From positions 480,001-544,000 of the forward strand of contig OZ242186.1 in the NCBI GenBank assembly GCA_965205675.1: a DNA stretch of 64,000 bases, in the 5' to 3' direction. Of the stretch, positions 59,690 through 64,000 are shown one piece after another (position 1 is the first letter of the stretch; the number at the start of each line of letters is the position of its first letter). Under the pieces are notes generated by a model, which searched no databases, was not told where the DNA came from, and worked only from the letters and a program-made list of their open reading frames with translations. Made by a program: the position numbers and the translations under genes. The DNA is from Nitrosopumilus sp. GTDB taxonomy: Archaea; Thermoproteota; Nitrososphaeria; Nitrososphaerales; Nitrosopumilaceae.

Positions 59690-60826
59690 TTAACCAAGTA
59701 GTTTTTTAATTTCTCCACCAATTAGAGTTTGAGCAGTTTTGATGGAACCCTTCAAACCTAATAATTTTATAATTGATCCTGTATGAAAATCAAAATCATC
59801 TTTTTCTGAAATATCTTTAATAATTTCTGGTGTAACTGATTCAAATAATTTATTGATTGTATTGTTATCTATTCGTTCTAAAATTTTTCTTGCCAATGAC
59901 TGTTTCTCAAATTCTTTACCAAATCTCTCCATCCATCTTTTTTGATATTGTTTTAATTCTTCTTTGTTGTTAGTTTTTAGAAATCTTGAAATTGCTTGCC
60001 CTGCATACACTCCTCCCATACCACTAGTAAAAATTCCTCCTGCTGTAGTAGGTTTTGCTTGTCCTGCTGCATCTCCTATGATGACTGTATTGTTTTCTAT
60101 GAAATTATCAATAGGTCCCTTTACCCAAATTGGTGCAAAAATCTTTCTAATTATAGAATAATTTCCTTTTTCTTCTAAAATTTCTTCCATTGTATTTGCT
60201 ACATTAATTCCTCTTCCTGCAATTCCTACTTTACCTTTACCTTCGTTAGATGGAATTATCCATGCAAAGAATCCTGGATACTTTTCTTGATCAAAAATCA
60301 CTTCTACTTTACCTTTCTTTATCCAATTTGCGTAGATTTCATATTGTGCTGATGACAAAATTCCGGTTCTATCTTTATGAATTAATGATGAGGCTCCTCT
60401 TGCATCAACAAAAATTTTACAATCTATTTTTTCTTTATTAGTTCTGATCCCCGTATCTGTCATTTCTTGAAAACTAGTTTTAACTTTGATTGTTGCTCCG
60501 TTTTTTTGAGCTTGAAAAGCTATCTGCTTATCTAATTCCCTTCTACTGATTTCTATGATTTTTTGTTTTTTTGCTTTGATTGTAAAACTATGTCTGTTAG
60601 GTGATGTTATCTCTGCTGACTCTATTATATGATCAAATGTTTTTCTAAATGGTATTATTCCAAGTTCTGTTAATCCTGCAATACTTACTAGGCCTCCACA
60701 ATGCTCTGGTGTCCCTATTTCATAATCTTCTTCAATTACTAAAACTGAAAAACCCTTTGAAGATATCTCTCTGGCGCATAATAATCCTGCAACACTCCCA
60801 CCTGCAATTACTACGTCATAGCTCAC
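59690..60826 (-). CDS. Geranylgeranyl reductase-like FAD oxidoreductase
   Basis: AGGSVAG, CGG, FAWIIP, GDAAGQAKPTTAGGI. Confidence 0.85.
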   Translation of the reverse strand: MSYDVVIAGGSVAGLLCAREISSKGFSVLVIEEDYEIGTPEHCGGLVSIAGLTELGIIPFRKTFDHIIESAEITSPNRHSFTIKAKKQKIIEISRRELDKQIAFQAQKNGATIKVKTSFQEMTDTGIRTNKEKIDCKIFVDARGASSLIHKDRTGILSSAQYEIYANWIKKGKVEVIFDQEKYPGFFAWIIPSNEGKGKVGIAGRGINVANTMEEILEEKGNYSIIRKIFAPIWVKGPIDNFIENNTVIIGDAAGQAKPTTAGGIFTSGMGGVYAGQAISRFLKTNNKEELKQYQKRWMERFGKEFEKQSLARKILERIDNNTINKLFESVTPEIIKDISEKDDFDFHTGSIIKLLGLKGSIKTAQTLIGGEIKKLLG

Positions 60827-61136
60827 AGATTTTGTTTCTTCGCCAATTATTTAATTTAAAGGTGTACTGGATTTCGTATTTATTTTTCTGTAAAGCCCAC
60901 AATTCAAACTACCCAACAAAAAGCGTATGACCATCAGTCTGGAACACCCAAAGGGTATTACGACTGAGGAAGGAACATCAAATTATACAAAGTCAACATA
61001 ATTCAAAAACTACAAACACATCAAAACTCCATTCTAGATTTTTAGAACATTATTAAAAATAAAAAAGGCTAGTTCAAAGACGAACTAACTTGACTGTCAA
61101 ACATTGTTACCAGACATAAATCATAATCAAAAGTCG

Positions 61137-61279
61137 TGGACCTGTTGGGAGTTGAACCCAAATCTCCTAGGTTTCAATTAGGTACATGACCCTCATGCTA
61201 CAAGTAATTGGGTATGCTGAGATAAAGTCAGTTAGGGCCTAGGTTTCAATTAGGTACATGACCCTCATGCTACAGGCCC
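61137..61279 (-). tRNA. Interrupted tRNA-like gene (G3:U70 acceptor, GAA anticodon) with a 72-nt internal repeat-spacer insertion
   Basis: Removing one repeat plus the spacer gives a 71-nt cloverleaf: GGGCCTG TA GCAT-GAGGGTC-ATGT A CCTAA-TTGAAAC-CTAGG AGAT TTGGG-TTCAACT-CCCAA CAGGTCC A. Confidence 0.65.
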
Positions 61280-61345
61280 ACAAAGATTTAATAAATAATG
61301 AATGCTAATAACATTAGGTTTCAATTAGGTTAGGCCAGCGTGCTA
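61166..61345. repeat. CRISPR-like mini repeat-spacer array (two perfect 37-bp repeats plus one degenerate copy)
   Basis: CCTAGGTTTCAATTAGGTACATGACCCTCATGCTACA at 61166-61202 and 61238-61274 with a 35-bp spacer; TAGGTTTCAATTAGGT again at 61315-61330. Confidence 0.8.
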
Positions 61346-61401
61346 ATCTCTTTTTTCTATTTTGCAATGCTTACCATCCCCCATACAAAAATATCACAGA
61401 T

Positions 61402-62412
61402 TGCTGTGTTTCCCAACATGACTAGTTGATCCAATTAATTTCATCACCCAAGCTTTAGATCAGAATATTCTGTATTATTCCATGAACAGAAACTGGAAAA
61501 ATTACAACAAAACACTAGTTAGACGTGGAGAAATCATGTTGTCCTTTGACGCAATGGAATCATGGAGTATGGAACTAAAAGAGATGAATCACAAAAAGGA
61601 AGGTCATCGATTTGTCTATCCTGAATCCTTCATGGAGGCGCTAGGATACTGTCATCTCTATTTGCATCTTCCATTCAGACAAACAGAAGGTCTGATAAAA
61701 TCACACCTCCAATCCAAAACAAAGACTCCCACATATTCTGCCATTTGGAAACGTGTCAACAAACTTGACATCAAGATGAATCCAAAACTAGGAAAAGACA
61801 TTGTCATTGCAATAGACTCAACTGGAATCAAGGTTGCAGACAGAGGTGAGTGGATGAGACAGAAATGGCAGAAGAGAAGAGGATTTCTTAAAATTCATGT
61901 GGCAGTAGATGTGAAATCTAAACAGATCACAGGGATTGATATTACAGATGACAAGTCACATGATTCAAAACATTTCATATCGCTAGTTGAGCAATTAAAA
62001 CAGTTTGGCAATGTCACTAAAACTTTGGCTGATGGTGCATATGATACAAAGGACAATTTTTCATATCTGTATTATGATAATGATATTCTACCTGCAATTA
62101 AAACAAGAAAAAACTCATCAGTTGTAACTGATTGTTATCCTCGGAGAAAGTCTGTTTTGGCACAATTGTATAACTTGGATCTATGGAAGCTCAGCGTAAG
62201 CTATGGGGATAGATGGATTGTAGAGGGAGTATTCTCTGTATTCAAAAGAATATTTGGAGAGCATGTGACATCGCACAAGAGAGAAAACATGATTCATGAA
62301 TTGAAAATGAAAGTTTGTCTGTACAATAAAATGATTGCAATGCAATAGAATCAGAAATGATTTCAAAGCATCAAAGAGTGTTGATGGTTATTTGGGGTTG
62401 GGAAACAAAGCA
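61402..62412 (+). mobile_element. IS5 family (IS903-like) element
   Basis: TIRs TGCTGTGTTTCCCAAC (61402-61417) and GTTGGGAAACAAAGCA (62397-62412), 15/16. Confidence 0.9.
61482..62348 (+). CDS. IS5/IS903-type DDE transposase, intact
   Basis: NWKNYN..LVRRG, IDSTGIK, KIHVAVD, ADGAYD, RWIVEGVFS. Confidence 0.93.
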   Translation: MNRNWKNYNKTLVRRGEIMLSFDAMESWSMELKEMNHKKEGHRFVYPESFMEALGYCHLYLHLPFRQTEGLIKSHLQSKTKTPTYSAIWKRVNKLDIKMNPKLGKDIVIAIDSTGIKVADRGEWMRQKWQKRRGFLKIHVAVDVKSKQITGIDITDDKSHDSKHFISLVEQLKQFGNVTKTLADGAYDTKDNFSYLYYDNDILPAIKTRKNSSVVTDCYPRRKSVLAQLYNLDLWKLSVSYGDRWIVEGVFSVFKRIFGEHVTSHKRENMIHELKMKVCLYNKMIAMQ

Positions 62413-62516
62413 CTATTTTAATTTTTGAGACATTACCATGAATACAAAAACACAAAGAGCCTTGTATAATCCATTTAATTTAAAAGTTTTTCATTAAGTT
62501 TATTTTTGATAATAAC

Positions 62517-62870
62517 ATGGGTGATATCAAACAAGTAATCGCTGTTAGAACTGATCTTGACATGGGAAAAGGCAAGATTGCCGTACAAGTAGGACATGCT
62601 TGTGTTTTAGGTGCAGAGCACGTTAGAAAATCCCATTCTGAATGGTGGAATGAATGGTGGAATGGACAAGAAAAAGTAGTTGTCAAAGTCTCTGGAATAA
62701 AAGAACTGCAAGACGTCAAAAGACATGCAATTGATTTGAATCTACCTTGGTCTGAAATCTCTGATGCTGGTCATACTCAATTAGCTCCTGGAACTACAAC
62801 ATGTATATCCATTGGCCCAGCGCCTGAGAATTTGATTGATAAAGTTACTGGCGATTTGAAATTACTCTGA
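62517..62870 (+). CDS. pth2: Peptidyl-tRNA hydrolase Pth2
   Basis: VRTDLDMGKGKIAVQVGHA, DAGHTQ, IGP. Confidence 0.95.
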   Translation: MGDIKQVIAVRTDLDMGKGKIAVQVGHACVLGAEHVRKSHSEWWNEWWNGQEKVVVKVSGIKELQDVKRHAIDLNLPWSEISDAGHTQLAPGTTTCISIGPAPENLIDKVTGDLKLL

Positions 62871-62910
62871 TTCTATAAGAGATATTAACTGTCTGTCCTA
62901 CAGCAAATTT

Positions 62911-64000
62911 ATGAAAAAACAACTCAAAGGAATTTTAGCATTTATTTTCCTAGGTGGAATCATGGTGACTTCTGGAGTTGTTATTGCATTTCCTGGTGTT
63001 GATCCTGGTCTGGATTCTGCTGAAATTACAGTTACTGGAACTCCTGCTGATAATTTTCCAGATGAACAACGTGCACAGTTTTGTGGTTCAAGTGATGCAA
63101 AATCTACAACTTTTGTACAAGAATTTTCAATTCCTACTCCTTGTACAAACCCATTAGCAATTGTAACTGATTATGATGGAAATGTGTGGTTTACTCAAAC
63201 TAATACTGGCATGATAGCAAAATTTGATCCTACTACAGAAACGTTTACTGAATATGATAATTCACTATGGCCTCCAGGTGCACGTTCGATGATGTGGGGA
63301 ATTGATTATGCTCCTGATGGCTCTATCTGGTATACTGATGAGTCCTATGATTCGGTGTGGAAGTTTTCAACTATTGATGAAAAGTATGAACGATTATCAT
63401 ATCCATCAGAAGGTGATTCCTTACCTCAAAAACTCCTTGTTGATGGTTCTCAAATTATAATAAATGATTTTACTGGAAACAAACTTACTTTCCTAGATCC
63501 AACTCAATCTGGTGAAGATGTAAATTATCTTAGTATTCCATCTCCTATTGATAATTCTGTAACAGCAGATTTTGCAGTTGATGCAAATGACAATGTTTGG
63601 TTTACTAATTGGTTATATCAACTAGGTGGGGCTTTGGTGAAGTTTAACCAAAATGGATATCTTGAATCCGTTGCAAATTCAGGTGAACAATTCCTTCCAT
63701 TAATGGACTTTATCGAAATCTATCAATTACCTGAAACCTTTCTTACTCCAAATGGCGCTGTAGTTGGAGATGATGGAATGATATGGCTAGCTGATACTTC
63801 TTCTTCGTCATTCTTTAGTTTTGATCCTGTGACTGAAACCTTTGTACAATACGTAACATCTGATCCTCTTTTGAGTACTTATGGTAATCAGACTGGAATT
63901 GTGAAAACTCCAATATCTCGACCATATTGGATTGAATCAGATGCTCAAGGTAGAATTATTTTCAATGAACAGACTGCAAATAACATCTCTGTATTAGATC
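62911..64000 (+). CDS. Secreted Vgb-lyase-like beta-propeller protein, runs off window end
   Basis: Manual translation MKKQLKGILAFIFLGG...; repeated DGNVWFT / DGSIWYT / DNVWFT blades. Confidence 0.8.
   Translation, partial: MKKQLKGILAFIFLGGIMVTSGVVIAFPGVDPGLDSAEITVTGTPADNFPDEQRAQFCGSSDAKSTTFVQEFSIPTPCTNPLAIVTDYDGNVWFTQTNTGMIAKFDPTTETFTEYDNSLWPPGARSMMWGIDYAPDGSIWYTDESYDSVWKFSTIDEKYERLSYPSEGDSLPQKLLVDGSQIIINDFTGNKLTFLDPTQSGEDVNYLSIPSPIDNSVTADFAVDANDNVWFTNWLYQLGGALVKFNQNGYLESVANSGEQFLPLMDFIEIYQLPETFLTPNGAVVGDDGMIWLADTSSSSFFSFDPVTETFVQYVTSDPLLSTYGNQTGIVKTPISRPYWIESDAQGRIIFNEQTANNISVLD

Follow-up and report, generated by a model that had tools for sequence, protein, structure and literature searches.

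The window analysed here is a stretch of 64,000 nucleotides from a Nitrosopumilus genome assembled as one contig (2.01 Mb, 33.7% G+C). A repeat search returned two 37-nt copies (61166-61202 and 61238-61274) that were 100% identical and 72 nt apart from start to start, together with a third exact copy of a 16-nt core at 61315-61330, which gave spacings of 72 and 75. This agreed with the sequence-only reading, which had described two identical 37-bp repeats around a unique 35-bp spacer: both copies were exact, with 61203-61237 between them. Chance cannot account for an exact 37-mer repeated inside 72 nt. On the minus strand, the order of parts ran from 5' acceptor bases (61279-61275) to copy A, the filler, copy B and a last part at 61165-61136 (Table 1), while positions 61341-61345 of that strand read TAGCA.

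Table 1. Features of the interrupted tRNA-like unit and its surroundings (window coordinates)
Feature	Position	Strand	Remarks
12-bp direct repeat, left copy	60849..60860		edge of the 1.6-kb inserted segment
Second conserved block with stem-loop	60891..60979		82% identity to that of the paralogous unit
Terminator-like hairpin and T run	61058..61089	-	47 nt downstream of the tRNA-like gene; kept in the paralogue
3' part of the tRNA-like gene	61136..61165	-	variable loop, T arm, 3' acceptor strand, discriminator A, one C
Copy B	61166..61202	-	37 nt; adjoins the 3' part; 100% identical to copy A
Filler	61203..61237		35 bp, apparently foreign; unmatched in sequence searches
Copy A	61238..61274	-	37 nt; adjoins the 5' acceptor bases
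5' acceptor strand	61275..61279	-	first five bases GGGCC, with G3 of G3:U70
AT-rich spacer	61280..61314	-	two conserved AT boxes; in all family units (alignment)
Leader core	61315..61330	-	repeats, in the same sense, the anticodon arm of this unit (5' strand of the stem, loop, 3 nt)
Leader 5' arm	61331..61357	-	conserved GAGATTAGC... block, A run before it
Insertion sequence (IS)	61401..62412	+	1012 bp; DDE_Tnp_1 transposase at 61482-62348
12-bp direct repeat, right copy	62473..62484

ARAGORN called a tRNA-Phe(GAA) at 61136-61207(-), a call whose acceptor-stem top carries two mismatches (by eye). When introns were allowed, it took genome 541136-541279, that is, window 61136-61279, as a gene of 144 nt with a 72-nt 'intron'. 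The window copy matched the Rfam tRNA model (RF00005) with 34.2 bits for a gathering score of 29, over model positions 3-68 only. Copy B covers linear positions 6-42, namely the end of the acceptor strand, the D hairpin and the anticodon arm. The idea that the repeat doubles as D arm and anticodon arm in a gene shaped like a tRNA was borne out, and the GGGCC 5' acceptor bases and the T arm/3' acceptor strand said to flank the unit were indeed seen on the minus strand. The locus is, on that strand, a 71-nt tRNA-like gene interrupted by a 72-nt insert.

We considered whether this gene might be the tRNA-Phe of the cell, and rejected it on account of the canonical tRNA-Phe(GAA) gene at genome 1563605-1563679. 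No host tRNA was close in sequence to the gene and its relatives, the best agreeing at 42 of 71 positions. We also noticed three more ARAGORN 'tRNA-Phe(GAA)' calls of 83-89 nt (genome 1261574-1261656, 1794331-1794418 and 1858414-1858502), with similar acceptor stems and a long extra arm, which is odd for tRNA-Phe. The same genome holds an uninterrupted 72-nt paralogue at 419548-419619, called "tRNA-Leu(AAG)" by ARAGORN, yet without the long extra arm; its 3' part is identical to 61136..61165 of the window.

The gene and its paralogue belong to a family. By DNA search, a family unit was present in 3 of 24 same-genus genomes and in 0 of 16 genomes of other families. When 400 genomes were drawn from the family, 13 of the 98 that belonged to the genus had a unit, and every strong match fell within the genus. 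Pattern scans yielded 4 family loci among 43 matches in the metagenome and 10 among 22 in genome_contigs, where the records were all Nitrosopumilus, Nitrosopumilaceae or Nitrososphaerota; viral_contigs gave 0 matches. The remaining matches failed the cloverleaf pairing test and were dismissed as chance. Altogether, genus genomes, metagenome and genome contigs provided 17 distinct members with an unbroken gene: 15 passed strict pairing, and G270 and L121 were added to these. The insert was absent from all 17. Judging from these searches, the tRNA-like family appears to be sporadic, and we saw it solely in this genus and family.

To assess the RNA shape, we aligned nine uninterrupted members, leaving out the window copy and the members found later. 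Pairing was seen in 92.8% of cells, as compared with 32-47% when the partners were slid; both sides had changed in 9 of 23 pairs, and the covariation score was attained by 0 of 500 shuffles. The cloverleaf of the family covaries, and the RNA shape is real. Uninterrupted members scored 39.2-55 bits on the Rfam tRNA model over its full length, and their minimum-energy fold was the cloverleaf (z -3.0 and -3.9). Conserved tertiary nucleotides of tRNA include U8, G18 G19, G53, C56 and C61, and U33 is conserved as well. In the nine aligned members, the D-loop GG did not vary, nor did U8, G53, C56 and C61; U33 was replaced by C in three of the nine, and position 14 was G, not A. The D arm was unusual, with a 6-bp stem and a 3-nt loop in which the GG was kept.

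The acceptor stem carried a further mark. Among the 16 members in register, the 3:70 pair was G:U in all 16, also in the window copy, and A73 was present in 15. Within this genome (47 ARAGORN calls), G3:U70 occurred only in its three tRNA-Ala genes and its two tRNA-like genes. This pair is an established alanine identity mark (PMC10543346), and AlaRS reportedly does not read the anticodon (PMC10543346, PMC12084884). The anticodons of the 16 members were GAA in seven, the type found in the window copy, AAG in eight and GAG in one, and the alanine anticodon (NGC) was absent from them. The middle A of the anticodon and A37 were invariant in the aligned members.

Upstream of every family unit, we found an A run, a conserved block starting GAGATTAGC, and a copy of the unit's own anticodon arm. 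This copy has the same sense as the gene and consists of the 5' strand, the loop and 3 nt; the AT-rich spacer and the gene follow. The spacer, with its two conserved AT boxes, may hold the promoter region or regions. The leader core differed from the core of its own gene by a mean of 0.75 per 16 positions (12 units), whereas gene cores compared with the leaders of other units showed a mean of 4.4 differences, with one difference or fewer in 4.5% of pairs. The third degenerate copy reported from the sequence alone is this leader core: its 16-nt core at 61315-61330 is exact, and its status as a repeat was lost since the leader is present in every family unit, with or without an interruption. At L117:5843-6330, two complete leader-plus-tRNA-like units stand in tandem, 209 nt apart, one with an AAG loop and the other with GAA, each having its own matching leader core.

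What makes the core track its gene may be a short opposite-strand RNA, running from the core to the T run and complementary to the anticodon arm; 6 of the 7 transition differences between cores would preserve a wobble pair, a count made by eye and not significant. It may also be a protein-binding site present twice. A third possibility, recombination at the core between family copies, is suggested by one locus (locus C), because its sequence diverges from the paralogue after the core: it has 99% protein identity to the upstream gene of the paralogue and matches up to the core, and beyond the core it is ~13% different (by eye). The leader core was also entertained as the att core of an element and dropped, the element boundaries being AT-rich 12-bp repeats elsewhere.

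The flanks of the window's unit were compared with other genomes of the genus. In 31 of 60 of them, the sequence of window 59690-60863 directly abuts that of 62473-63300 (by coordinates), and an empty site was found at all five junctions read. The window thus differs by a 1.6-kb segment between 12-bp direct repeats, and this contains the unit, the block at 60891-60979, the terminator-like hairpin, the 1012-bp IS and ~60 further bases. No integrase or other mobility gene besides the IS was found in the 1.6-kb segment of the window. The paralogous unit lies at one end of a 10.2-kb insertion (genome 419188-429436) that has its own 12-bp direct repeat and an empty site in four of five relatives. 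A VirD4/TraG-like gene stands right beside the leader there, and a tyrosine integrase gene at the far end; the right ends of the 1.6-kb and 10.2-kb insertions have a short motif in common. Beside the other family loci, there was no VirD4-like gene, and the presence of an integrase was inconsistent, a fragment being found near only one of the units checked across five genomes.

The IS of the window belongs to the IS5 family; the genome has at least three copies of it in full length and several that are partial. The window copy has no 7-bp target duplication, which both other copies checked do have, and a deletion or recombination at the IS is therefore indicated. From its boundaries and content, we read the 1.6-kb segment as the stump of an integrated element, a decayed relative of the 10.2-kb integrase-bearing one, with the tRNA-like unit as its cargo. 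The conserved block is also seen at genome 419363-419449 and beside the unit in L112; its stem-loop shows one compensating change between copies and matched no Rfam family.

Several relatives were rearranged. In two of them, at genome 1273738-1273830 and in L004, the leader runs straight into the 3' half; others are truncated copies. At genome 1273738-1278860 (L016), a type III restriction-modification pair (Mod and Res, 5 kb) lies between two leader-type copies that have a 34-nt direct repeat in common; the one downstream is joined without a gap to a tRNA-like 3' half. At genome 358035-359062 (L015), the C-terminal 298 residues of the VirD4-like gene occur again with 99% identity, accompanied by a leader and by a tRNA-like gene of which just the first 19 nt are present; divergence from the paralogue begins exactly at the leader core. 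L022 (G395:C1:1073570-1073760) holds an array of tRNA-like 5' halves, each followed by an AT-rich spacer. Such an array would be the expected product of unequal exchange between leader core and gene core.

We then turned to the insert itself, relying on assembled contigs for the comparison with sequence data from outside the assembly. Two contigs of 388 nt, one from run X2 and one from run X3, aligned on 60951-61165 plus 61238-61361. They skipped 72 positions at the joint, where 37 letters fit either side, and differed at 8 other letters in 339. The unit that they represent is 98% alike to that of the window and has no insert. Given these eight differences, the contigs come from other organisms and therefore do not demonstrate polymorphism within the strain. 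With the 17 uninterrupted members, they provided the uninterrupted form that was to be looked for among relatives; the variable spacers named as the other possibility were not seen, relatives having uninterrupted genes only. A third contig (run X1, Logan, 102 nt) aligned on 61166-61267 with zero differences, covering copy B, the filler and 30 nt of copy A.

The X1 contig bears on the possibility that the duplication is a mis-join at a repeat made during assembly. The window comes from a single assembly and no run contains more than 26% of the sampled words, both of which leave room for such an error. As against this, the X1 contig was made with another assembler and reads copy, filler, copy without a difference, albeit from what is possibly the source sample, so that it is not independent proof. 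Moreover, a mis-join would have no source, because the filler is nowhere else in the genome. We consider an artefact, which had been named as a way for the whole observation to fall, very improbable.

The source of the filler was sought widely. It had no match elsewhere in its own genome or in phages, none that was significant in 150 genomes of the genus (best E 0.011), six chance matches in plasmids (E >= 1), and 0 in viral_contigs and in genome_contigs, where exact matches only were sought; among the collected loci, it matched only those collected for their chance likeness to it. The comparison of the spacer with viral, plasmid and metagenomic data that had been advised hence returned no source in phages, plasmids, viral_contigs or genome_contigs. 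The filler was also compared with the family spacer, as a possible diverged copy of it, with an alignment score below the shuffle mean, and with the unit and the 10-kb element, with no signal. A simple tandem duplication is excluded, because the filler is no diverged copy and its source was found nowhere searched.

Does the interruption matter to the RNA? The minimum-energy fold of the interrupted RNA (-41.5 kcal/mol, z -1.35) was not a cloverleaf, although the acceptor stem still pairs, and forced cloverleaves had -30.0, -30.0 and -20.8 kcal/mol. By these calculations, a tRNA fold is not predicted for the interrupted RNA. A working tRNA-like RNA might still be made if the 72 nt were an archaeal tRNA intron or a tolerated insert in the variable region. 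A 72-nt intron is accepted by ARAGORN, the 71-nt form comes back whichever 72-nt register inside the repeat is taken out, and the genome has several intron-bearing tRNAs, one of them also called with 72 nt; one register would place the insert at the start of the variable loop. Archaeal tRNA introns are cut at bulge-helix-bulge motifs, in which two 3-nt bulges surround a 4-bp helix with flanking helices. A scan for this motif found a weak 2-4-2 pairing of the two copies at linear position 28/29, which could be taken as bulge-helix-bulge-like, but the controls were poorly discriminated. The best 72-nt register had two flanking pairs per side in a scan that missed the predicted sites in six intron-bearing control tRNAs. 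No strong motif appeared at any register by this poorly discriminating scan, the cloverleaf folds lie 11.5 kcal/mol above the minimum, and the 72 nt are absent from the 17 other members and from the 98%-alike X2/X3 unit. Archaeal introns are not known to consist of a copy of the exon. A spliced or tolerated insert thus seems quite improbable to us.

The framing of the locus as CRISPR-like was examined against the CRISPR-Cas system of the genome. This is a type I locus at genome 698253-706000 (L060:12253-19979), outside the window, and the claim that the window has no cas genes was not contradicted, the only Cas1 match of the genome lying ~158 kb beyond it. In the native array (698253-699002), 12 repeats, each 30 nt long, alternate with 11 spacers of 34-37 nt, four of which are 35 nt long. 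The array is followed by cas4, cas1 and cas2, whose reading frames are intact, then an IS (IS630-like transposase gene), then cas3 and cas5. No second array was found in the genome, with a 37-nt repeat or any other, and the native spacers gave only chance-level matches to the genome and the collected loci. Aligned with the 37-mer and with the flank, the native repeat scored at the shuffle mean (365 and 195 of 500 shuffles scored as high or higher). The ATTGAAA common to the site and the native sequence was reached in 87 of 1000 shuffles, and neither the native leader nor the native repeat was significantly like the insertion site in alignments against shuffles. Examined as a CRISPR array, the site has two exact 37-nt repeats and one 35-nt spacer, the third copy sharing 16 nt only. 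The motif ATTGAAAC, which had been taken for a typical CRISPR repeat 3' end, is the anticodon loop of the window copy, and the loops of other members differ. The CRISPR-like framing was not supported by the repeat check, the native repeat being 30 nt long and unrelated to the 37-mer or its flank.

It had been proposed that the locus encodes a guide scaffolded by a tRNA and freed by RNase P and RNase Z; in a variant of this, Cas6 would free the 35-nt guide from a mini-CRISPR transcript. Apart from the layout (repeat, unique piece, repeat in a tRNA frame) and the CRISPR-Cas locus in the genome, nothing speaks in its favour. The repeat is unrelated to the native one that a processing nuclease would need, the unit occurs once and has no variants among relatives, the 35-mer found no target in phages, plasmids, viral_contigs, genome_contigs or 150 genus genomes, and the copy sits in a decayed element. 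We give this proposal next to no credence.

An accident of the adaptation machinery had also been put forward from the sequence alone. Cas1-Cas2 would have made staggered cuts at a distance of 37 bp within the gene and inserted a prespacer of 35 bp, and gap repair would have duplicated the 37 bp, resulting in a one-spacer 'neo-array' with inactivation of the gene as a side effect. Cas1-Cas2 is documented to integrate off target both in vitro and in E. coli (PMC6698737, PMC7054753), and 'neo-CRISPR' loci arising in this way were reported by Nivala et al. 2018, as cited in PMC6698737 and PMC7054753. A foreign 35-bp piece between exact copies about as long as a repeat has the form of a Cas1-Cas2 product, the type I locus provides cas4-cas1-cas2, and the 35 bp of the filler fit native spacers of 34-37 nt. 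The duplication, however, is 37 bp long and the native repeat 30 nt. The P. furiosus system is comparable, with a repeat of 30 bp and spacers of 37 bp, and its paired off-target sites lie 30-31 bp from each other and resemble the repeat (PMC6698737). The site is not significantly like the native leader or repeat, no second array with a 37-nt repeat was found in the genome, and no protospacer was found in phages, plasmids or genus genomes, nor, by exact matching only, in viral_contigs and genome_contigs. The proposal therefore kept its adaptation genes and spacer length and lost on repeat length and likeness of the site; we judge it unlikely, though worth keeping in mind.

We consider it rather probable that the locus is a recent knock-out of a mobile-element-borne tRNA-like gene by a 72-bp insertion; we do not take it for a CRISPR unit, for a guide RNA or for a spliced gene. 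The starting point would be a module in which the leader and the AT-rich spacer precede a tRNA-like gene of 71 nt, whose acceptor stem is of the alanine type (G3:U70, A73) and whose anticodon loop is GAA. In this strain, the gene would have been split by 35 bp of foreign DNA with an exact 37-bp target duplication, in a copy that would sit in the stump of an integrated element whose interior was lost next to the IS. As a result, the tRNA-shaped RNA would most likely no longer be made. This account starts from direct observations: the family and its alleles without the insert, the cloverleaf, the setting in an element, and a CRISPR repeat of the genome that is not like the site. The insertion is most likely specific to the lineage or strain and inactivating, and the interrupted gene has presumably lost its function. 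Against the knock-out, both 37-nt copies are still identical, so no decay indicates disuse, and the acceptor stem still pairs in the minimum-energy fold.

As to the origin of the insert, it may be what remains of an element for which the 37 bp served in attachment and which was later deleted to 35 bp, which would require a deletion leaving just 35 bp. Alternatively, a break may have been repaired with captured DNA, an event for which we know of no precedent. We lean towards such a recombination or repair accident rather than the CRISPR adaptation machinery. The two other options raised beforehand, the scar of a deleted element and a duplication-derived pseudogene, come nearest to these findings, with the reservation that a simple tandem duplication is excluded.

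As a CRISPR-like object, the locus comes down to one broken copy of a gene, and a caution follows: a tRNA with an internal duplication can be misread as a mini-array. The family itself is more interesting than its interrupted member in the window. It unites a covarying cloverleaf and an invariant alanine identity pair with anticodons of the Phe or Leu type, and in each unit the leader tracks the anticodon arm. The family looks undescribed before, no description having turned up in a full-text search on Nitrosopumilus and 'tRNA-like' nor in the part of PMC6563490 consulted. Provided that these RNAs receive an amino acid and are put to use, abundant marine ammonia oxidisers would have mobile elements with deliberate mistranslators or tRNA decoys on board. 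A more speculative view, which we hold to be improbable, is that the module is an element-borne two-part device, a matched toxin and control pair of RNAs, in which a Phe/Leu-codon tRNA charged by AlaRS, or a decoy, goes with a partner matching its anticodon arm. That partner could be, for example, a short opposite-strand RNA pairing with the anticodon arm, or an operator, and the window copy would be a knocked-out example, possibly through ectopic spacer insertion. The insert is shaped like an acquired spacer, and the genome does have an adaptation module; were acquisition shown, this would be a natural case of it occurring off target.

Set beside known systems, the interrupted copy resembles a CRISPR unit or a 'neo-CRISPR' locus, as presented in the consulted parts of PMC6698737 and PMC7054753, by its exact repeat-length duplication around a spacer-length insert in a genome with an adaptation module. 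It departs from these by duplicating 37 bp where the native repeat has 30 bp, by having no likeness to repeat or leader, and by being a single unit with no variable spacers in relatives. With archaeal tRNA introns, it shares an interruption of 72 nt whose removal restores the cloverleaf and a host that has intron-bearing tRNAs; unlike them, it has no convincing bulge-helix-bulge, half of it is a copy of the exon, and it is missing in all other members.

The uninterrupted family bears comparison with the mistranslating tRNA-Ala anticodon variants of yeast and human (PMC10543346, PMC12084884), which likewise combine a G3:U70 stem with a non-alanine anticodon. In these sources, the variants are point variants of cellular tRNA-Ala genes, whereas here we deal with a separate, conserved and mobile family. 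Unlike them also, the family has a D arm with a 6-bp stem and a 3-nt loop, carries A34 in half of its members and does not conserve U33.

Finally, tRNA and tRNA-like genes are carried by viruses and integrated elements of archaea. Integrated elements of thaumarchaea have a median att of 17 bp, with sites down to 8 bp and intergenic targets (Krupovic et al. 2019, PMC6563490). The tRNA-like unit is similarly found on an insertion that has an integrase and, at its ends, a short direct repeat (12 bp), and like those elements it is sporadic among close relatives, with empty sites in others. A module made of a leader and a tRNA-like gene with a matched copy of the anticodon arm is not described in the consulted part of PMC6563490. 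The tRNA-like gene here is cargo at the end of the element and does not serve as its attachment site.
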